A stretch of DNA of 64,000 bases from Nitrospirota bacterium (GCA_963790025.1 CAWBMP010000004.1:1088001-1152000), one strand, 5' to 3'; positions 1-18,693 are shown, numbered from the stretch's first letter. A program made the numbers and translations. The notes: a model not told the origin generated them from the sequence alone.

Positions 1-388
1 CGTTGCTTTTAGACGATATTTTAACCAGAACAGGATATGTAACACCCGGGGCCGAGACGAATATCTGCGTTTCCGTCAAATCTGCTGTAAGTATTTTGAC
101 AAAAACTGTCTTTTCTCTTATCTGAACATCAATGCTCTCGGTGGCCTTTATGACTTCCTGTATCGGAAGCGGAAAATTAACCTGTACTGCCTTATTCACT
201 CCCGTATTTATCAGAATGACCTCGCCGTTCCATTCAACAAATCGCTTACCGTCCATCGCGATGGCAGAAGAAGGCAAAAGGCCAAAGGGCAAAGAAGGGC
301 TAAAGTCTAAAGGCAAAAAACAAATAACTAAAGGCAGAAAGAAAACGGAAAACAAACTTCTATATTTTATTTTTTGTTTTTTATTCAA
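1..388 (-). CDS. Conjugative transfer protein, TraK/DUF3438-like (truncated by window edge; not in ORF track)
   Basis: Manual translation from TTG at 388 gives MNKKQKIKYRSLFSVFFLPLVICFLPL...SSAIA|MDGKRFVEWNGEVILINTGVNKAVQVNFP, open to the edge. Has a signal peptide and lies directly after the TraE-like gene. Confidence 0.6.
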   Translation of the reverse strand, partial: MNKKQKIKYRSLFSVFFLPLVICFLPLDFSPSLPFGLLPSSAIAMDGKRFVEWNGEVILINTGVNKAVQVNFPLPIQEVIKATESIDVQIREKTVFVKILTADLTETQIFVSAPGVTYPVLVKISSKSN

Positions 389-463
389 TTTATGCCTTTT
401 TTGTCATATTTTAGCCATTTGCCTATTGCCTTCCTTTGTCTCTTGCGTTTTGCCTGCACTCCT

Positions 464-1066
464 TCATTCATGTTCTGACAGTTGTCCCTTTCTCATTTCT
501 GTAATATGAAACCCGAAAATATTCACATCATTAGGTGCTGTAGCCTCCAAAAAAACCTCATAATAGTACCTCTCTGTCTTCTTGACCTCTCCTGCACCCA
601 GCACACTTCTCTTGCCCTTAATAGTAACTATGTATGCCTTTTCATCGATCTTCCTGATTTCATGTGTTTCAGGAGAAAATAAAAAACTGATATCGCCGGC
701 CCTTAATGAATCGATAACTATTTTCTGCTCCTCATAGAACTTTGATCTGTATACAGGGCTCAGATATCTCGAGGACCGCTTTGTCACAAGATCGGCAGTA
801 TCGGATGTGACGGATGCAATAAGCAAAACAAAATTTTCAGCTATACTCAACACTACATCCTCTATTGCCTCGCCGGGTGTATAAATTCCCGGCTTGGCCC
901 CGGGGACTATATATGCGCGCCTTGGGGTCTGAGATGATTTTACTAGGGCAAATGCCAGGAATACAACAACGACCAGAAGAATGATCGACATCATTTTCCA
1001 CGCTGCTCCCTCGCCGGCATACTTCGCAATCAGAATCCACGATTTTTTTTCAGAACAAAAAGACAT
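464..1066 (-). CDS. Conjugative transfer protein, TraE/DUF2895-like
   Basis: Single N-terminal TM segment and C-terminal PNDVNIFGFHI motif; follows the pilin and TraL-like genes. Confidence 0.65.
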   Translation of the reverse strand: MSFCSEKKSWILIAKYAGEGAAWKMMSIILLVVVVFLAFALVKSSQTPRRAYIVPGAKPGIYTPGEAIEDVVLSIAENFVLLIASVTSDTADLVTKRSSRYLSPVYRSKFYEEQKIVIDSLRAGDISFLFSPETHEIRKIDEKAYIVTIKGKRSVLGAGEVKKTERYYYEVFLEATAPNDVNIFGFHITEMRKGQLSEHE

Positions 1067-1075
1067 ACGCTCCTT

Positions 1076-1393
1076 TTAGGGTGAATACAATCTTTTCCCC
1101 GGCGCCATAAGATGGTTAGCCCGCATTTTGTCATTCCACACTCCATACTTATGCATAATATGGCGTATATATCCTACCGGCCTTACTTCGGCAATTTTTT
1201 TAAGTATAAAAGCAATAAACAGCCCGATCATGACTGGGATAATTATGCCGAAGATCGACTGCTGGAATCCGGCGCTCTTAAAGACAACTATAAGCATCGA
1301 GACAAAAACTATAACAATGGCCAGATCATCCGCCTGCAGGCCAAAAAAAAGCAGCGGCATGTTGAGTGCTTTAGGTACACGGTAACGCATCAC
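1076..1393 (-). CDS. TraL/VirB3-like conjugative membrane protein
   Basis: N-terminal YRVPKALNMPLLFFG, two TM segments, C-terminal RPVGYIRHIMHKYG; TraL-like layout. Confidence 0.7.
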   Translation of the reverse strand: MMRYRVPKALNMPLLFFGLQADDLAIVIVFVSMLIVVFKSAGFQQSIFGIIIPVMIGLFIAFILKKIAEVRPVGYIRHIMHKYGVWNDKMRANHLMAPGKRLYSP

Positions 1394-1399
1394 TGACCT

Positions 1400-1726
1400 C
1401 TACTGGCCGGTCACTGCTTTTGCAGGAACATTTGCCACATCAGGAAATAAGAGGCCTATAAATGCAATTAGAACATGAGGAGCAACACCGACCACAATAC
1501 ATCCAAACAGAATGCCTATGTTCTTCCCGCTCATAAAGTATTCGACGATGCCGATTATTCCCGCCGCTATAGTAAACAGTGCACCATAGATGCCAGTGAT
1601 GGCGCCTTTAGCCGTGCCATACACATCATTTAAAGCCATTGCATAAGATGAATCTGCATTAGCCAGAATACCAATACCTACAATCACCCCTACCGCAACC
1701 CAATCCACAGCCGTAAACTTGCTCAC
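1400..1726 (-). CDS. Conjugative pilin (VirB2/TraA-like)
   Basis: Leader ending SYA followed by two hydrophobic helices; precedes the TraL-like gene. Confidence 0.65.
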   Translation of the reverse strand: MSKFTAVDWVAVGVIVGIGILANADSSYAMALNDVYGTAKGAITGIYGALFTIAAGIIGIVEYFMSGKNIGILFGCIVVGVAPHVLIAFIGLLFPDVANVPAKAVTGQ

Positions 1727-1735
1727 GTTGTCCTC

Positions 1736-2089
1736 CTATTTTGAGTTGATAATATCTTCGAGGAAGTAATCTCCCTCGATCTTGAAGGGGATGTAATCCC
1801 CTGTAAGCTTTTCATTTCTCGGGTAAAGATATGCTTCGAGGTCTTTTTCAATAAGCTCTATATCCGTCAGCAATTTGCCGTAATCAAAACTCGGCAGGTT
1901 ATTGGCCGATCTCGATTTTTCGGTGTAAAAAAGCGCCTGTTCCAGAGAAAAATAGGCCCTTTGAAGATAAGAAAGCGACCTTGCCTCACTATAGTTCCTT
2001 GTCTGAGGCATTTCGCTCAAAGACTCACCATAGATAGGCGTCGCTAAAAAGAGTGCGCTGCAAATAAAAGGTAATATATATTTTTTCAT
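1736..2089 (-). CDS. RAQPRD-like ICE protein
   Basis: Signal peptide plus FDYGKLLTDIELIEKDLEAYLYPR...IEGDY, which resembles the RAQPRD family C-terminus; precedes the pilin as in PFGI-1-type ICEs. Confidence 0.6.
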   Translation of the reverse strand: MKKYILPFICSALFLATPIYGESLSEMPQTRNYSEARSLSYLQRAYFSLEQALFYTEKSRSANNLPSFDYGKLLTDIELIEKDLEAYLYPRNEKLTGDYIPFKIEGDYFLEDIINSK

Positions 2090-2110: not shown

Positions 2111-2674
2111 TTACGTGGCTGAATATTGATATGATGTTTGTTCAAATACTATCAGGTTTTCAGCTATAATCCTTCCGTTCCCGATGAGGCCCTGTACGAG
2201 CACTACATCTCCCGTCCGTATTTTAGACATTTTCAACTTCATCATTTCTTCTGATGTTTCTATGACATGAGTGACAATAAATGTTTTAGTCTTTCTGGGC
2301 TCTTTCGTTTCCATGACAAATCTCATGTATTCATCTACCGAAAATGGGGCTTTTTTGACAGTTCCTATCAAAGTAGCATCATTAATATCCTGGTTCCCAA
2401 AATTAATCAACTCGACAACTATTATTGATCTGGAGCCAGATATCGGACCATTGACATAAACAATATCGTCGATCCTTATTTTCGAGAGTATCTCCATCAG
2501 TCGCTCATCTTTTGTTTCTATTAGATGGGGGCAAGCCAAAACTTTATTCCCTTTTAAAACCCTGGTCTCCATTGTAAACGTCATTCTGTCATGCTCGCGA
2601 GCCGCCGGCGAGGTGACTCTTCCGGTCAGTCTGTTGTCATTTACATTTCTGTTGACTTCAAAATTATTCCGCAT
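2111..2674 (-). CDS. Tandem OB-fold (SSB-like) protein
   Basis: Two ~80-aa internal repeats (ND..L.G.V...M.F.MET...H.IET...SKIR..D.V.V.G.I). Confidence 0.6.
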   Translation of the reverse strand: MRNNFEVNRNVNDNRLTGRVTSPAAREHDRMTFTMETRVLKGNKVLACPHLIETKDERLMEILSKIRIDDIVYVNGPISGSRSIIVVELINFGNQDINDATLIGTVKKAPFSVDEYMRFVMETKEPRKTKTFIVTHVIETSEEMMKLKMSKIRTGDVVLVQGLIGNGRIIAENLIVFEQTSYQYSAT

Positions 2675-2871
2675 TGTTTATTCCCTTGCATTGAATTTTT
2701 GATAAGACGTTATCACTCCGATTGAACTCTTAATATCCCTCTCATAAATACTACTTTTGATAATTTTGTTTGTCGGATAGGTTGCCGAGCTTTATGGTAT
2801 TCGAAGTAGTTCGTGTTTAGAAACCAAAATCCGAAAATAAAAGGGGGAGGTTATGGTTGAGGAAAGAGAAC

Positions 2872-3504
2872 TTAGGCTATGAGGCTATTTTTAATCGCAT
2901 AATTTGTCAATTCGGCATTGTTCTTCAACTTCATTTTTTCAAGAATACGGCTTCTATATGTGCTGATTGTCTTGACACTCAGAGACAACTGCTCTGCAAT
3001 TTCGCTTGCAGTTTTGCCGGAGGCGATCATGCACAATACCTGATACTCTCTGTCTGAGAGGATTTCGTGAGGTTCCTTTTTTGTGTCCTCATCAAGATTG
3101 ATGGCCAGTTTTTCTGCCAGAGGAGGGCTGACATATTTTCTGCCGGCAGCTACAGTACGTATGGCTGTTACCAGTTCTTCCGGTGCGCTATCCTTTGTCA
3201 TGTATCCGGACGCCCCTGATCTCAAAACTCTTATTGCATATTGATCTTCCGGGTACATGCTGAGCATCAGGACGTGAAGGCTGGGGTATTCATTTTTTAT
3301 CTCCTTCAAGGCATCAAGCCCGCTTTTGCCAGGCATAGAGATATCAAGCACTATCACTGAATAATCGTTTTTCCTTATTTTATCAATCGCTTCATAAGCA
3401 CTGCCTGCTTCGTCTACTATGGTCATGTCTGGAACACCCGATAGGATTTGACGCAACCCCGCGCGAACAACGGAATGATCATCTGCAATAAGTATCTTAA
3501 TCAT
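2872..3504 (-). CDS. NarL/UvrY-family response regulator (REC + LuxR HTH)
   Basis: ILIADDH, LDISMPG, LSDREYQVL...LSLSVKTISTYRSRI motifs. Confidence 0.95.
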   Translation of the reverse strand: MIKILIADDHSVVRAGLRQILSGVPDMTIVDEAGSAYEAIDKIRKNDYSVIVLDISMPGKSGLDALKEIKNEYPSLHVLMLSMYPEDQYAIRVLRSGASGYMTKDSAPEELVTAIRTVAAGRKYVSPPLAEKLAINLDEDTKKEPHEILSDREYQVLCMIASGKTASEIAEQLSLSVKTISTYRSRILEKMKLKNNAELTNYAIKNSLIA

Positions 3505-3665
3505 GAGCGATTATAACATATGCGCTAGCAAATAGATTATATTTGCTTATAATAACAAATAGATCGCATCTAATGTATATGCTGTAAGGAACTATTTCAT
3601 TGGCAGTGTTAATCCTATACCCAAATCCGGCGCTAAGGGCCTAAGTCATAATTTATAGACCGTCG

Positions 3666-4418
3666 CTATTTGGTATCGTTCGGCATTACTAGCTGACTGC
3701 ATTTGAGCACCTTGCCGTAATCCGTAAAATAACTGTCGGCTTCTTCTCTCGTCTCGGCACATGCTATTACGGTGCTATGTATAGCGTTCATGCATTCGGC
3801 CTTAAAAAGCTTCAGTCCCATTGCATTAATTTCGGATACGAGCTGCTTAAATATTTTGTTTGAAAGTGTAGTTTTTCTCCTGCACCCGTACATTTTCTCA
3901 AGCTCATTTATTGCGGGTTTGCAATAGTGCTGACGTGTTAAAAGTCTCAGTGTATCCAATACCCTTTTCGATACAGCTTTATCATTGAAGGACTTAATGC
4001 AAACATGAAACTCGTTTTTTTCTCTGCTGACAGACTCCATCTCATATTTTTTCCACGAGACATCCCGGTCGTGCCCTCTCCCGTCGGTTTCTCCGGGCTT
4101 GAAAACAGTCCGCTCGAAATCTATGTCCCGTAATTCTTCATTACAGGCCGGCCAGTTTCTCTGACTCGAAATTTCGCCGCCATCCAGCCCACGGATACTT
4201 TCAAAGCCCTTTTTCAGATACCAGACAAAGACCGTAGTGTCCTTAGTCTTTTGGAATTGATCTCTCTTATATACTTTGGCCTGCAGTCCGGCAAGATATG
4301 CAATTGACATCGCTTCCATTTCGTTGAAATGAGGCCCGAGCCGCTTTCTTGCAATTTTGATTATAATTCCCTTATTCATTTCGAGGAATTGCTCTATTTT
4401 TTTATTTGCGTTGACCAT
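3666..4418 (-). CDS. Hypothetical protein with a degenerate sigma70 region-2-like N-terminus
   Basis: FLEMNKGIIIKIARKR...AYLAGLQA...TTVFVWYLKK loosely matches sigma region 2; overlaps the upstream ParB-like gene. Confidence 0.45.
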   Translation of the reverse strand: MVNANKKIEQFLEMNKGIIIKIARKRLGPHFNEMEAMSIAYLAGLQAKVYKRDQFQKTKDTTVFVWYLKKGFESIRGLDGGEISSQRNWPACNEELRDIDFERTVFKPGETDGRGHDRDVSWKKYEMESVSREKNEFHVCIKSFNDKAVSKRVLDTLRLLTRQHYCKPAINELEKMYGCRRKTTLSNKIFKQLVSEINAMGLKLFKAECMNAIHSTVIACAETREEADSYFTDYGKVLKCSQLVMPNDTK

Positions 4419-5893
4419 AACAGTCCCCCCCAGTTAGACGATTGCTGCATGCCGGACATTGTACCGTAAATTTTTTCCAGCGAAATTATTCTGCTGTTGA
4501 TACCATTGTTGTTGATATCCATGCCATTGATACTGTCTTTGAAATCTTCAAATTTTTCTTTAGTCCTTAGGCTCGTCAGCCCATTATCGTCTCCCCATTC
4601 AAGTACTGACAACAGGGCAAATATGCTATTTACCGTTAATTGTTTGAGAATACCCCCATCTTTTTCCGAAACATCAGGGATTGCCTGAATGTGTTCATTA
4701 ATATGAGTCACCATAAAACTCACATATTTTTCAAATTCCAAACGAAGCCTTTCTGTTGTAAATTCACATTGGTAGTTACAGGCCTCCGTTCTCTTTTTCA
4801 GCAGTTCTTCTTTTTGTTTTAGCTGGTCATTCTTCTTCAAAAGCTCTTTTCTTTGTATTTGCAATTCTTCTTTTGCGGCCTTTAATTCATAGTGTAATCC
4901 CTCCATTTCCATTGCGTAGCTTCCGTCCTTGATGATTCCGGCCACACCGGGGAACTTTTTCGCGAGAAGCGGTAAAACAGTGATTTTGATCTCGTGGTCA
5001 GTTGCGTCGTTAACTTCAAGCAGACGAATTGCATCATAAATTTCATTTATGCTTTTCTGTGCTGATGCAGAGGCCGTCTCACACTCAACTGACGGCTCAG
5101 AGCGTTCCTCCGTATTTTTTCCATCTGATTCATTTTCTTTTGCGTCAAGAGCATTTGAAGATCCCTCTACTGACTTCCATTTATATGTCGGGCCATTATT
5201 ATCAGTGATACTTGCGGCCACTGTTTCATTATCATTTGGGTGCTTTTTTGTGACTTCATTTATCAATCTCCGTGCGGTTGTTCTTGACACCCCTGTTTCG
5301 TTGATGATTTTCTTTACGGACGCTCCCTGGACCAATAAAGTTTTTACTTGTTCTTTTTTACTGACTCTCGCACACACTGCCTTCACTTTTCTTTCTTTTA
5401 CTTCATTTTGAAGCCATCTGTATATGGTGGCTTTACCTGCAATGCCCGTTGCTATAATTTCAGCGCCTGTACAACCATAAATGTTCATTTTTTGTACAGC
5501 GTCTTTTCGTTCTTCGTTGCTCAGTGCCATGCCGTGACTTGCATTCGATTCACATGCCTTCATCAATAAATGTTTTTTAACCTCGTAAGTGTTTAATTCT
5601 GATTCTGAAATTGATATATCGGTACGAATTCTTGCTTTAATCTTCTTCATCTTAATTTCTTTTTGTGCCAGCAACCTGTGGACGCCGTCTTCCAGCGCAA
5701 ATACTTCTTTTCCAGGGTCTCCCGTCTGTACCAGCGAGACTTCAACAGGTGGAATTTCAAAGATAAGGTCTTCCTTTTTTTGAGAATAAATTTCCCTGAA
5801 AAACGCAATTCTTGAGTTATCGATTTTTGTTCTGGGGCTGGTACCGTCAACAATAAGAACTGAATTAACTGAAACCTCTTTTGTGTAAAACAC
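4394..5893 (-). CDS. ParB/Srx N-terminal domain protein with HTH(s) and coiled coil
   Basis: IPPVEV...LEDGVHRLLA...ESNASHGMALS ParB-like motif; HTH-like segments GKATIYRW and TGVSRTTARR; GTG start with GGAGG SD. Confidence 0.75.
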   Translation of the reverse strand: MFYTKEVSVNSVLIVDGTSPRTKIDNSRIAFFREIYSQKKEDLIFEIPPVEVSLVQTGDPGKEVFALEDGVHRLLAQKEIKMKKIKARIRTDISISESELNTYEVKKHLLMKACESNASHGMALSNEERKDAVQKMNIYGCTGAEIIATGIAGKATIYRWLQNEVKERKVKAVCARVSKKEQVKTLLVQGASVKKIINETGVSRTTARRLINEVTKKHPNDNETVAASITDNNGPTYKWKSVEGSSNALDAKENESDGKNTEERSEPSVECETASASAQKSINEIYDAIRLLEVNDATDHEIKITVLPLLAKKFPGVAGIIKDGSYAMEMEGLHYELKAAKEELQIQRKELLKKNDQLKQKEELLKKRTEACNYQCEFTTERLRLEFEKYVSFMVTHINEHIQAIPDVSEKDGGILKQLTVNSIFALLSVLEWGDDNGLTSLRTKEKFEDFKDSINGMDINNNGINSRIISLEKIYGTMSGMQQSSNWGGLLWSTQIKK

Positions 5894-5994
5894 TTTTCCC
5901 TCCTTTGAAACACTCTTATTAAATATGAAAGCATACTAATTTTTAGACCGAATATAGTCTCGATGGCTGACCTGTCAAAGATAGGACGCCATTG

Positions 5995-6051
5995 AGATAA
6001 CTAACATGTTAGATATTTTACGTGTTTAGAATGACAGTTATGTTAACATAA
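5995..6051. promoter_or_regulatory. Palindromic operator-like sites between the divergent ParB-like and XRE genes
   Basis: AACTAAC-AT-GTTAGAT (5999-6014) and perfect palindrome TTATGTTAACATAA (6038-6051). Confidence 0.55.
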
Positions 6052-6224
6052 TAATATTATATTTTCATTATTATTTCTTAATTGAGCAGTGACATCTTAA
6101 CGTTCTTTGAAATAACACACATTTTGTTTCACATTTCCTTTTTAAAACCATATGGTTGGATGTCGAAAGGTGCCGGAAAGAGGTATTATTGTTTTTTTTC
6201 TTTTTATTGTTTATCATTGTAGGC

Positions 6225-6890
6225 ATGGCACTTTGGGATTCCATAAAAGAGATCAGACAAAAAGCGCAGCAAACTCAAAAAGAGTTCGCAGATGCAATAG
6301 GTTACACACCCGAGTACATCTCTAATATTGAGCGTTCCCCTGATATAACGCGCAGGATTGCAACGGAAAAGATGATAAAGAAAATTGCAGAAATATATAC
6401 GAAAACTGATGAGGAAAGAATCTCTCTAGAAAGAAAGCTGCTGCTTGAGCGGGCACAGGCAACTGTAAGTCCGGAAGTTGCAATGCATTTTTTAATGGAT
6501 GAGAAGAAACTGTCCACTTATCAGTCAGAGGATGGTATGCCACTCTCATTTATTAAGCGATTAAAAAAAGATTTGTTGAATGTCGAGAACGAAAACACCT
6601 TTTTCAATTCTCTTCAAACAGTTTCAAAAGATGTCGTTGAAGAAAGCCTGAACGGCATGCGCCTCCTCCCTCGAAAAGCGGTTGTAGAAATCGCACGGTT
6701 GTTGGGCCAGTCGATTGAAGAATATTTAATTCTCGCTGATTATATGCCGAGCGAGTTAAAATCGCTCATTATGCACAAAGGGATGAACAATATGTTTCGC
6801 ACTATGAGTGAACTGGACTCAGAAGAACTTGATGCCATGATCGATGTATTTTCGAGTGTTTTGAGAATGCGCAAGAAAAAGAATGAATAG
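6225..6890 (+). CDS. XRE-family HTH transcriptional regulator with a second HTH-like domain
   Basis: IKEIRQKAQQTQKEFADAIGYTPEYISNIER. ATG 6225 is preferred over TTG 6156, whose extension is a poly-T tract. Confidence 0.85.
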   Translation: MALWDSIKEIRQKAQQTQKEFADAIGYTPEYISNIERSPDITRRIATEKMIKKIAEIYTKTDEERISLERKLLLERAQATVSPEVAMHFLMDEKKLSTYQSEDGMPLSFIKRLKKDLLNVENENTFFNSLQTVSKDVVEESLNGMRLLPRKAVVEIARLLGQSIEEYLILADYMPSELKSLIMHKGMNNMFRTMSELDSEELDAMIDVFSSVLRMRKKKNE

Positions 6891-7002
6891 CAACTCGCTG
6901 GACGACTAACGTGCATATAAAGTATGGATAAAATCGGAAAAATCGTAATTCAACAGCTTGCTGAGGGATTTATTGAGCAGTGGGAGATAAACCCTGATTT
7001 TA

Positions 7003-7787: not shown

Positions 7788-8084
7788 ATGCTGACTAAAA
7801 CTTGGGGATTTTACATGATTTTGCTCTGCTCATTATTTTTTGCTTCGAGCGGCTGTACATCTGAGCACATAAGCTTATGGGATAGGCACTGTGCGGCTTG
7901 CCATGACGGGAAGACCGTTCTGAACAAGCACGTTGTTATTAGTAAGGAACAGATGAAGGAGAAATACAAAACGCTAAAAGAATTCTCAAATGCATGTTCA
8001 GGCACAACAGCTTGCATGAATATACTCAAGCACGACAATAAGTTATTTATTGAGGTGGGCGAGGAAATTGGGATAAAAGAGTAA
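7788..8084 (+). CDS. Small c-type cytochrome lipoprotein
   Basis: Strong SD AAGGAGG, lipobox-like ASSGC, CAACH heme motif. Confidence 0.75.
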   Translation: MLTKTWGFYMILLCSLFFASSGCTSEHISLWDRHCAACHDGKTVLNKHVVISKEQMKEKYKTLKEFSNACSGTTACMNILKHDNKLFIEVGEEIGIKE

Positions 8085-16761: not shown

Positions 16762-18693
16762 TTATTTTACTGTACCAATGAGAACGAGCGAAAACAGAAT
16801 AAACAGCCCTATCGCCATACTGATTGCATAGTGCTGCACATATCCGGTCTGCAGCTTTCTTAATCTTTCACTGAAATTTCCGATCATTCTGGGCACGCCA
16901 TTTACAATGCCTTCTATAATCGTGCCGTCCGTCACCGGCATAAGTATGCTGCTCGCCAACCACATCGTGGGCCTTATAATAATAAAATCATATAATTCGT
17001 CCACATAATATTTATTCCACAACACAGCATATATCCCGCTGAAGTTCTTGGCCAGGCTCTTCGGTATACCAGGCTTCAGCACATAAAATATCCATGAAAC
17101 AATTATGCCTCCGACAGCGCAGGCTATTGAAACAGCCATTACCATCTTCTCCTCTGCCTCGCCGGCATGGACGTGAGGATGACCAAGTACGGGCTGGAAG
17201 AAGTGGCCTATAAAATTGCCTCCGCCCAAGGTTTCAGGGATTCCTACCCATCCGGCAAATATCGACCCAACAGCGAGAATCATGAGCGGGATGGTCATTG
17301 ACTTTGGCGACTCATGAAGGTGATGCTCCTGCTCGTGAGTCCCCCTGAATTTTCCATGGAATGCCAGGAAAATAATCCTGAAGCTGTAGAATGCGGTAAG
17401 CGCGGCCACCAGAGTTCCCATGGCCCATACAATCCTGCCGATAGAACCGCCGTTATATGCAAGCCAGAGTATCTCATCTTTGCTGAAGAAGCCCGAGAGC
17501 CCGGGTATGCCTGCGATGCTCAATGAAGCAATCAGGAACGTCCAGTAAGTAACAGGCATATATTTCTTGAGTCCGCCCATCTTTTGTATGTCCAGTTCGC
17601 CTGACATGGCGTGCATGACGCTGCCGGCCCCGAGGAACAGAAGGGCCTTAAAGTATGCGTGAGTATACAGATGGAAGATACCAGCTCCATAAGCGCCGAC
17701 GCCGCACGCAAGGACCATATAGCCAAGCTGGCTTAGTGTGGAATACGCGATAATACGTTTTATATCATTTTGCACCAGCGCTATAGTAGCAGCAAACAGG
17801 CTCGTGACTGCGCCGGTAATCGCCACAACGCCCATGGCAACAGGCGACAAACTGAAAACGGGGTTGAACCTTGCCACCATGAATACGCCGGCGGTAACCA
17901 TAGTTGCCGCGTGTATCAGTGCGCTTACCGGTGTCGGGCCTTCCATAGCATCAGGCAGCCAGACGTGTAGCGGGATCTGGGCTGATTTGCCGACAGCGCC
18001 GCAAAACAGAAGCAGTGCGATAAGGGTTATAAGGTCTACATTGTATCCATAAACGGCTATCGTATGCCCCTGAAGCGTTGCGACCTTGCTGAATATGTCG
18101 GCGTAGTGGACGCTGCCCAGAGTCAGGAAGATCAGCATCACTCCCAATCCGAAGCCGAAATCTCCGAACCTGTTTACAATAAAGGCCTTTTTGCCCGCAT
18201 CGGATGCGCTCTTCTTCTCATACCAGAAACCGATGAGGAAATAGGAGCACAAACCCACTGCCTCCCATCCGAAATAAAGCTGGAGGAGATTGTTGGCAGT
18301 CACAAGCATAAGCATCGAAAATGTGAAAAGGCTCAGATAGGAGAAAAAGCGGTAATATCCGCCATCACCGTGCATGTAACCGACAGAATAAATATGGACA
18401 AGCAGGCTTATACTGGTCACTACGATAAGCATTATGGCGGTAAGCTGGTCTATTAAAAACCCTACGCTTGCTTTGAAAGTACCGGAGACGATCCAGGTGT
18501 AAACGTCCTGGTTGATGACCTTGCCGCCCATGACTTCAGCAAAAGTCATCACCGCAAGCGCAAAGGAGCCGAACACCGCGAGGATAGCGACCCAGTGTGC
18601 CTTGTCCTTAAAAATAGATTTCCCGAATAGAATATTTATGATAAAAGCTGCAAGCGGCAAGAGAGGAATTAAAATATACTGTTCCATTGTCAC
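16762..18693 (-). CDS. nuoL: NADH-quinone oxidoreductase subunit L
   Basis: [32 protein letters not shown]. Confidence 0.97.

Follow-up and report, generated by a model that had tools for sequence, protein, structure and literature searches.

How the transfer genes of a chromosomal, conjugation-type island are switched on is the question raised by one end of a 64,000-nucleotide stretch of a Nitrospirota bacterium genome. This whole stretch, C4:1088001-1152000 of the source genome G000 (98.8% complete, 3.45 Mb), is called the window here. Near its left end two co-directional open reading frames (ORFs), ORF-B and ORF-A, overlap by 25 nt and face TraL/TraE/TraK-type genes, and a gene for an XRE-family regulator diverges from them across a palindrome (Table 1). 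A first-pass annotation had read this arrangement as a candidate switch of an integrative and conjugative element (ICE), in which a ParB-domain protein and a sigma-70-like factor are opposed by a repressor with several helix-turn-helix (HTH) motifs. The overlapping gene pair, its direction, the divergent XRE gene and the intergenic palindrome are all as described there, and the other parts of that reading are modified below. We propose, with a probability of about 0.5 as judged from sequence comparisons and structure models, that ORF-B and ORF-A work together as a two-protein module for transcription activation, placed at the head of a transfer-type island. From the anatomy of the locus, this module may act as a switch that turns on the transfer genes.

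The N-terminus of ORF-A had been said to parallel sigma region 2, and this was found in both sequence and fold. When a profile of 34 family sequences was aligned with 16 RpoD proteins by hhalign, regions 2.1-2.3 were matched over 70 columns with a probability of 94.6% (E 7e-8). Against all PDB sequences, the same profile had sigma factors in 57 of its 60 best rows, in register with the same regions (best E 0.0018). The AlphaFold2 (AF2) model of ORF-A has a four-helix N-domain (residues 2-78), a disordered segment (77-133) and a C-domain (136-243). Among 48,161 chains compared by VIA-align, the 22 best rows include 20 that are sigma factors or chain F of initiation complexes; AlgU (Z 7.9, root-mean-square deviation 3.5 Å over 79 residues) and SigR (Z 6.9, 3.0 Å over 74 residues) are two of them. 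The matches with Z 7-8 span residues 1-84, and the second-look list consisted almost wholly of sigma entries. The aromatic pair W66-Y67 aligns with the tryptophan pair of sigma factors and T62 with a sigma threonine, which are presumably W433-W434 and T429 of E. coli sigma-70. As judged from sequence and model together, the N-domain of ORF-A is a genuine but very divergent sigma region-2 domain.

The conservation of the family is highest in the same part of the protein. Among 17 relatives the mean pairwise identity is 93.9% for residues 33-76, the family maximum, 43% for the linker and 73% for the C-domain; the ratio of nonsynonymous to synonymous substitution rates (dN/dS) of ORF-A is 0.18. 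Close relatives (at least 56% identity) number 21 among 5.8 billion protein clusters, two of them labelled Dissulfurispiraceae, and a profile of 17 of the relatives, run against 1.84 billion representatives, recovered 59 proteins at E ≤ 0.001, of which 42 also pass E ≤ 1e-10. The 34-sequence profile, when applied to 401 Nitrospirota genomes, gave a full-length match in G000 only and a partial one in genome G322. In 195 further Nitrospirota genomes it matched ORFs of 400-600 residues through profile positions of about 6-81, and all 24 of these ORFs that were inspected end in an RpoD-type region 4.2. No match to ORF-A was found by tblastn against plasmids, and no relative in two metagenome scans. 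One remote relative, P0042 (333 residues, from a Thermodesulfovibrionales assembly), apparently has two tandem sigma-2-like N-domains ahead of the C-domain.

In the model, the C-domain of ORF-A consists of a short strand, three helices (151-160, 167-177 and 182-199) and a beta-beta-alpha-beta unit, and its family motif is YKAECLNG..VIVCA..EA..Y..YG. No Pfam family was matched by the C-terminal part at E ≤ 10, and an ESM Atlas look-up of the C-domain returned scores of 0.81-0.83, which is chance level.

ORF-B is built of a ParB/Srx-fold N-domain, two HTHs, a low-complexity linker (about residues 215-290) and an all-alpha, heptad-rich C-domain. The ParB relationship that had been claimed for it holds at the level of the fold. 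Foldseek of the AF2 model of residues 1-230 (mean predicted local distance difference test score, pLDDT, 84) gave 37 PDB matches at E ≤ 0.001, among which were Noc (E 5.6e-7), ParB (1.1e-5), sulfiredoxin (4.2e-5, template-modelling score (TM) 0.64 on the target) and KorB (3.4e-4), as well as PadC, pNOB8 ParB and SbnI; the ParB matches include those of Bacillus, Myxococcus and Caulobacter. It was this fold search alone that revealed ParB: the ORF-B profile found no ParB in the PDB, and Pfam ParB_N gave no match to ORF-B even at E ≤ 10, the chromosomal parB being its only match in the genome. In an ESM Atlas look-up of the N-terminal part of ORF-B, which served as a lead only, ParB_N clusters made up 20 of 30 hits. 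In an alignment of 14 sequences G70 and R73 are invariant and A76 is nearly so. They form GxxRxxA, which we take to be the ParB/Srx signature motif, in register with GERRWRA of chromosomal ParB. The N-domain is, in the model, a ParB/Noc/KorB-type fold followed by HTHs.

The two tandem HTHs, which had also been annotated, are seen as a Pfam HTH_7 match at residues 180-206 (E 5.2e-5) and as helices in the model. Of the annotated coiled coil there remains a heptad-rich C-terminal half, the sole matches of which are weak leucine-zipper ones. The C-domain carries the invariant motifs LPLL, RxxxCxxxC and SxxEW. The relatives of ORF-B number 19 and lie on the same contigs as relatives of ORF-A; no others came to light when homologues were searched again with the ORF-B alignment. 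The dN/dS of ORF-B is 0.145.

The two genes are kept together. Four loci have readable context, namely that of G000 and three from Nitrospirota and Dissulfurispiraceae assemblies (L004-L006), and about 38 remote relatives of ORF-A stand outside this comparison. Across the loci the ORF-B and ORF-A genes overlap or sit 11 nt apart. In 4 of 4 the XRE gene is opposed to ORF-B, and ORF-B is followed by ORF-A, the gene of a 187-residue protein and the TraL/E/K/B/V-type genes, so that the synteny agrees with the expected association with conjugation genes. In full, the related loci read XRE, ORF-B, ORF-A, the 187-residue protein, proteins of 117 and 112 residues, TraL, TraE, TraK, TraB and TraV. One of the 59 profile hits of ORF-A, P0047 (690 residues), is a head-to-tail fusion, in which a match to the whole length of ORF-B is followed by a complete ORF-A-like part. 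By adjacent or overlapping genes, co-occurrence and one natural fusion, ORF-B and ORF-A are a coupled pair.

A parallel and independent arrangement was found on plasmid NZ_CP087953 (108 kb) of Desulfosarcina sp. BuS5. There a divergent HTH (XRE) regulator gene is followed by the gene of a 557-residue ORF-B homologue (hhalign 97%, E 5e-11, residues 44-213) and by an overlapping gene for a 186-residue protein, and this trio adjoins TraU, TraN, TraF-like and coupling-protein genes. The 186-residue protein is annotated as a sigma-70 family sigma factor. It has a sub-threshold TIGR02937 match in region 2 (E 1.3e-3), its C-terminus resembles region 4.2 by eye, and beyond region 2.2 no relation to ORF-A is detectable.

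The palindrome between the divergent genes, which in G000 reads GATAACTAAC-AT-GTTAGATATT, is the best-conserved intergenic block in 4 of 4 loci and a perfect 11+11 inverted repeat in the relatives; when up to 3 mismatches are allowed, the 3.45-Mb genome has a single copy. It could be an operator of the XRE protein, a loading site of ORF-B, or both. It lies between two divergent promoter-like sites, both of which are consensus matches only. The leader of ORF-B, with an invariant TAAGAGTGTTT..AGGAGG, has TAAGAGT in common with a block upstream of the 187-residue-protein gene. This second block is the only long invariant stretch in an alignment of the four upstream regions, and the genome holds no other copy of it within 2 mismatches. 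We infer that it is a candidate ORF-A-dependent promoter. A reduced pattern of the block, AGTAGT-N-AAGAGT, has 3 island hits at up to 1 mismatch versus 0.75 expected, a mild enrichment, and 13 at 2 mismatches versus 11.7 expected. A recurrence of this element at many island promoters was rejected on these counts.

The XRE protein matches Pfam HTH_3 (E 1.9e-9) at residues 30-81 of the 244-residue ORF. A methionine at codon 24 makes the ATG a likelier start than the TTG. The multi-HTH architecture expected from the first-pass annotation was not found: one HTH was detected, and the C-terminal half alone gave nothing at E ≤ 10. Orthologues of 235-250 residues occupy the same position in L004-L006, and the dN/dS versus L004 is 0.08. 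In L004 the 3' end of the XRE gene is abutted by a gene for an IrrE/ImmA-type M78 peptidase (L004:7009-7548), which has no counterpart in the compared region of G000 by tblastx. This arrangement recalls ImmR/ImmA, a repressor/protease pair.

The far end of the island carries a further transcription gene. A second, divergent rpoC, encoding a paralogue of the RNA polymerase beta-prime subunit, is located on the strand of ORF-A, about 77 kb to its left. The genome also has a canonical rpoC of 1,381 codons adjoining its single rpoB, and the paralogue is 50% identical to the canonical protein. It keeps the NADFDGD motif, the bridge helix and the trigger-loop segments and is without the trigger-loop insertion of about 270 residues. 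All four ORF-A genomes have the paralogue at 1,092-1,103 residues (one copy is truncated by a contig end); the copies of the other three are 75-78% identical, and the canonical genes that these genomes also carry are at about 49-50%. No second full-length rpoC was found in a sample of 150 other Nitrospirota genomes, and the 9 with at least two matches have complementary fragments. In genome G401 the paralogue shares a contig with ORF-A. It closes the collinear array there, with TraC, the coupling protein and two small genes immediately ahead of it and chromosomal genes beyond. In G000 the array is interrupted before this gene by a molybdopterin/polysulfide-reductase-type operon and a few further genes. 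In G322, which is of the same genus, the approximately 80 kb between ORF-A and the paralogue are replaced by about 6 kb within conserved flanks (G322:C2:397479-404014; L079, L080), and what is left is a C-terminal piece of ORF-A and a 68-codon C-terminal piece of the paralogue. To judge from these remnants, the island was lost from G322 by deletion.

The clamp helices, the sigma-docking surface of beta-prime, are 92-94% identical among the paralogues and 54% identical to the canonical ones, which are 98% conserved among themselves; several charged residues are neutral in the paralogue. Its dN/dS is 0.16, and all tested island genes are under purifying selection. Because of their co-occurrence, collinearity, joint decay and mirrored conservation, the beta-prime paralogue may be the partner of ORF-A. 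A plasmid search with the paralogue returned ordinary rpoC only (at most 47% identity), mostly on chromosome-like records. No description of such an rpoC paralogue was found in open-access papers and preprints.

On the proposed mechanism, the XRE protein would repress the divergent promoters. Once repression is relieved, ORF-B would bind the palindrome and hold or deliver ORF-A through its C-terminal domain. Through its sigma-2 domain ORF-A would attach to the beta-prime clamp helices of RNA polymerase, and the likely docking partner would be the paralogue of the island with its remodelled helices. Initiation would then be directed at AAGTAGT-N17-TAAGAGT before the transfer genes, and perhaps also at the leader of the pair itself. 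In its widest form, which we put forward only tentatively, the island would have a private transcription system. The paralogue would replace the host beta-prime in a fraction of RNA polymerase, ORF-A would be a cognate sigma docking only on the altered clamp helices, and ORF-B would tether or deliver it from the single palindrome, so that transcription of the secretion and pilus genes would be orthogonal to the host sigma pool. If true, this would be a bacterial chromosomal island with polymerase re-tooling, which to our knowledge has so far been associated with phages.

Several results weigh against the proposed module. ORF-A matched no family at E ≤ 0.1 in Pfam or NCBIfam, including Sigma70_r2, Sigma70_r4 and TIGR02937, and Pfam Sigma70_r2 touched only 3 of 34 family members (best E 0.0023), although these three matches in themselves favour the sigma-2 homology. 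The AF2 model of ORF-A is moderate (pLDDT 64). A VIA Z below 8 for a four-helix domain can be a common helical arrangement, as the tool warns, and weight was placed on the agreement of sequence and structure for that reason. In place of the polar QEGN of region 2.2, ORF-A has S-I-A-Y. The region-4-like segment that had been read in the C-terminus was not recovered: no profile match to RpoD regions 3.2-4.2 was obtained with the C-terminal 121 residues, and whole-chain alignments to small phage sigma factors in the viral library, over about 200 columns, are weak (E 0.015-0.4). With the complete ORF-A model, Foldseek had no match at E ≤ 0.001 in the PDB (E ≥ 0.08) or in the viral library (E ≥ 0.015). 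For ORF-B, hhalign against 23 chromosomal ParB proteins was in register (SPR-QPR, IPPVEV-IQPVIV, EDGVHRLLA-AGERRWRAA, ESNASHG-ENIQRED) and not significant (2.3%, E 0.02), and of the arginine-rich GERRxR patch of ParB proteins that depend on cytidine triphosphate (CTP) one of three arginines is kept (EDGVHRLLA). For these two reasons a CTP-dependent clamp behaviour of ORF-B is a conjecture. Finally, plasmid NZ_CP087953 has no beta-prime gene, and a sigma-like partner therefore does not require the paralogue.

Some of these results would also be expected if ORF-A were an ordinary DNA-binding activator of the BisC/SetC kind, that is, a promoter-bound dimer recruiting the normal holoenzyme, with the sigma-2-like helices used for dimerisation or for binding ORF-B and with an unrelated role of the paralogue. 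The lack of region 4 similarity and the unconserved polar residues of region 2.2 agree with this, as do the three HTH-compatible helices and the beta unit of the C-domain; Lrp/AsnC regulators are among the best whole-chain Foldseek rows (E 0.08-0.5, TM about 0.2). An extra N-terminal dimerisation domain is reported for BisC itself, which acts only with BisD (PMC12409273). However, ORF-A has sequence homology to sigma 2.1-2.3 with the aromatic pair kept, and the sigma-2 stretch, not the C-domain, is the most conserved part of the family. A minimal sigma also stands at the same position on plasmid NZ_CP087953. We consider an ordinary activator rather unlikely. A FlhC-like match is absent from every structure list of ORF-A, an absence without weight because these lists are filled by the N-domain, and the C-domain could still be of FlhC or Lrp/AsnC type. 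A lone sigma-2 domain could also occupy the clamp helices as a mimic that titrates or blocks RNA polymerase, which would make ORF-A a growth-arrest or takeover factor and not a promoter-specificity factor. Region 4 is not demonstrated in ORF-A, and overproduction of Sig7-8, a sigma factor of Tn916, is reported to kill cells (bioRxiv 10.64898/2026.10.01.756105). Against a mimic stands the conserved position of ORF-A directly upstream of a long co-directional array with a conserved promoter-like element. A DNA-directed role is also in better agreement with the conserved C-domain of about 110 residues and with P0047, in which an ORF-A-like part is fused to a DNA-binding protein. Such a blocking function appears very unlikely.

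The ParB fold of ORF-B, together with a ParM-like actin gene left of the island, could be taken to mean that ORF-B is the partition protein of a former plasmid or ICE and that ORF-A is an unrelated neighbour, paired with it without regulatory meaning. Because the ParM-like gene persists in G322 despite the loss of the island there, it is chromosomal. No ParA partner adjoins ORF-B, and the palindrome is present in a single copy. The fusion in P0047 and the pairing of ORF-B with a sigma-type gene on an unrelated plasmid also speak against an accidental neighbourhood, and we regard a partition origin as highly improbable. The proposed two-protein activation module is preferred to these three explanations.

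The island itself is less clearly mobile than had been assumed. To judge from its gene content, it is a chromosomal island of about 83 kb in which type IV secretion genes of F-/MPF-G-like kind are combined with those of type IV pili; both a coupling protein and mating-pair-formation genes are present. In the genome no match to TraI_2, TrwC or Relaxase (PF03432) was found at E ≤ 0.01, other relaxase families being outside this search, and no relaxase was found among about 80 island ORFs scanned with Pfam or 27 scanned with NCBIfam. No tyrosine recombinase was found within about 100 kb, the nearest Phage_integrase match being at C4:907019; serine and DDE recombinases were not searched specifically. 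Because neither a relaxase nor a nearby integrase was detected, the label ICE given in the first-pass annotation is not justified, and from its sequence the locus is better called a conjugation-type secretion and pilus island of unproven mobility. G000 and G401 carry the island at one and the same place in the chromosome, which is also that of the G322 remnant. The synonymous divergence (dS) of island genes is 0.8-1.3, versus 0.96 for canonical rpoC in another genome pair. These values fit a long co-divergence with the host and not a recent transfer.

The closest comparison is with BisD/BisC of ICEclc from Pseudomonas. BisD is described as a ParB-like CTP-dependent clamp with a long linker and an all-alpha activation domain, which enables BisC-bound promoters to fire, and BisC as FlhC-like with a dimerisation domain (PMC12409273). 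The two systems share a ParB-fold, HTH, flexible-linker and all-alpha C-domain protein encoded just upstream of a smaller partner gene, and also RAQPRD/TraL/TraE-type transfer genes, a type IV pilus cluster and a nearby palindromic site (PMC12409273). The analogy made in the first-pass annotation is reasonable for ORF-B in these respects; ORF-A, in the position of the FlhC-like BisC, has a sigma region-2 domain. ORF-A and ORF-B also fall in no ICE family at E ≤ 0.1 in NCBIfam, and neither is linked to the ICEclc proteins by a Pfam or NCBIfam family; the comparison is one of descriptions, not of BisC and BisD sequences. ORF-B is without the arginine-rich CTP patch, the palindrome has one copy, and the island is without a detectable relaxase or integrase.

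Other systems resemble parts of the module. KorB of RK2 is among the fold matches of ORF-B (PDB 8qa9 and 8qa8), and in KorB/KorA a ParB-family DNA-binding protein and a small partner likewise control promoters of plasmid transfer and maintenance; however, KorAB represses, and KorA is a small HTH repressor, not a sigma relative. In phage T4 late transcription the minimal sigma gp55 is activated by the gp45 sliding clamp, and gp33 is the substitute for region 4. T4 gp55 (PDB 7d7d) is among the VIA rows of ORF-A (Z 5.3), and the proposal for ORF-A likewise has a minimal sigma-2-type factor depending on a DNA-loaded, tracking protein. Unlike the proposed module, T4 uses a PCNA-type ring clamp, not a ParB-type one, and needs gp33, and no homology is implied. 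By analogy, the logic of the module resembles those of BisD/BisC and T4 gp45/gp55, with a sigma-like output protein. The best N-domain matches of ORF-A are extracytoplasmic function (ECF)-type (group 4) sigmas, namely AlgU, SigH, SigL, SigE and SigW, which likewise have two domains joined by a linker. In contrast to them, ORF-A has a disordered linker of about 55 residues and the extra beta-beta-alpha-beta unit, without a region-4 sequence signal or a Pfam/TIGR02937 match.

A sigma factor encoded by a conjugative element is not new in itself, because Tn916 encodes Sig7-8, a split, auto-activating sigma (bioRxiv 10.64898/2026.10.01.756105). Sig7-8 is, as is proposed for ORF-A, a sigma-type factor of a conjugative element that positively controls genes of the element. 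It differs in being formed by two small subunits, in having no ParB-type partner there, and in belonging to Firmicutes and to another type of secretion system, whereas ORF-A is a single chain with an unassigned C-domain and is accompanied by a beta-prime paralogue. Among the papers listed in a search of open-access papers and preprints, none described a ParB-like protein paired with a sigma factor in this way.

Table 1. Features of the locus; positions are counted from the first letter of the window unless genome coordinates are given
Feature	Position	Strand	Details
XRE-family regulator	6156..6890	+	listed ORF 244 residues, TTG start at 6156; probable start ATG 6225, 221 residues
Promoter-like site for XRE gene	6031..6060	+	ATGACA-18-TATTAT; 10/12 consensus
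Putative operator or loading palindrome	5996..6017		GATAACTAAC-NN-GTTAG(A/T)TAT(T/C); inverted repeats I5, I10; between divergent promoter-like sites
Sigma-70-type promoter-like site for ORF-B/ORF-A	5951..5978	-	TTGACA-16-TATATT; 11/12 consensus, best of 16 sites in 2600-7000
ORF-B leader block	5900..5918	-	TAAGAGTGTTTCAAAGGAGG; directly upstream of GTG start; includes ribosome-binding site; (nearly) invariant in 4/4 loci
ORF-B	4394..5893	-	499 residues, GTG start
ORF-A	3666..4418	-	250 residues
NarL/LuxR-type response regulator	2872..3504	-	Response_reg E 3.3e-29, GerE E 3.1e-19 (Pfam)
Promoter-like block	2726..2756	-	AAGTAGTATTTA-N12-TAAGAGT; upstream of 187-residue-protein gene, the first gene of the transfer array
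187-residue conserved protein	2111..2674	-	first gene after ORF-A in related loci
Start of transfer-type gene array	2..2089	-	Pfam/NCBIfam; runs leftward beyond window
RAQPRD-like gene	1736-2089	-	RAQPRD E 8.2e-5
Pilin-like gene	1400-1726	-	108 residues
TraL gene	1076-1393	-	E 1.2e-4
TraE gene	464-1066	-	E 5e-8
TraK gene, N-terminal part	2-388	-
Second, divergent rpoC (beta-prime paralogue)	G000:C4:1011360-1014671 (L007:3360-6671)	-	1,103 residues; all five Rpb1 domains; above rpoC equivalog cut-off

The first 8 kb of the window have a G+C content of 40.5-42.6%, versus 44-49% for the remainder. Leftward beyond the window the array continues with TraK, TraB, a signalling-gene block, TraV, three secretins, several T2SSE-type ATPases, T2SSF proteins and prepilins, and it also has TraU, a TraF-like thioredoxin, a TraG_N protein, a lytic transglycosylase, TraC (VirB4 type) and the coupling protein (T4SS-DNA_transf). 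The NCBIfam scan of the 27 island proteins added PilP-like and pilin-like calls only.

Between ORF-A and the transfer genes two more genes are found in G000. The 187-residue protein matched no Pfam or NCBIfam family, and ORFs of 187-188 residues stand at the same position in L004-L006. It consists of two similar halves (..G.V....F.ME.....K......H.IE......L.KIR.GD.V.V.G..) and might be a tandem OB-type or other nucleic-acid-binding protein. The response regulator gene is an insertion outside the conserved core, and L004 has no gene there. Through its product, of NarL/UvrY type, a two-component system of the host may control the island. Like the response regulator, the signalling block found in G000 is an insertion relative to the related loci. 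This block lies between TraB and TraV (L001:7694-17679) in G000 only, without a counterpart in G401, and comprises GGDEF, a 1,052-residue SBP-PAS histidine kinase, a LuxR-type regulator, a Cache-HAMP chemoreceptor (MCP), HDOD and CheR-PilZ.

Other cargo is scattered over the island. The operon inserted ahead of the beta-prime paralogue in G000 encodes molybdopterin oxidoreductase, 4Fe-4S and NrfD (polysulfide-reductase-type) proteins; it follows the coupling-protein gene (L007:11060-16211) and is absent there in G401. Toxin-antitoxin-type genes are dispersed, namely HigB/HigA, AbiEii and PIN with Phd/YefM (L001:3074-3664; L003:10730-12390 and 17264-17991). Between the island border and flavodiiron/rubrerythrin genes, an ORF of 98 residues (7788-8084 of the window) has a signal-peptide-like start and a CxxCH haem-binding motif.

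ParB-type control of conjugative or secretion islands has been worked out for BisD/BisC and KorB/KorA, and control by an element-encoded sigma for Tn916. The locus unites both ideas: a ParB-fold protein is coupled to a sigma-region-2 protein, fused with it in one relative, in a protein family that neither Pfam nor NCBIfam recognises. We regard the module as a new form of transfer-gene control, at once ParB-assisted and sigma-mediated. Should ORF-A prove to be a working sigma, the sigma-70 family would gain a member with a new kind of C-terminal domain, and the supply of a sigma factor by a DNA-bound ParB-type protein could be tested on this example. The paralogue, with its conserved, non-canonical sigma-docking surface, opens a route to asking whether bacteria or their islands build orthogonal RNA polymerases by a swap of beta-prime. 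With the coupled ORF-B/ORF-A genes at its head and an altered beta-prime copy at its far end, the arrangement suggests that the island may carry its own transcription kit.

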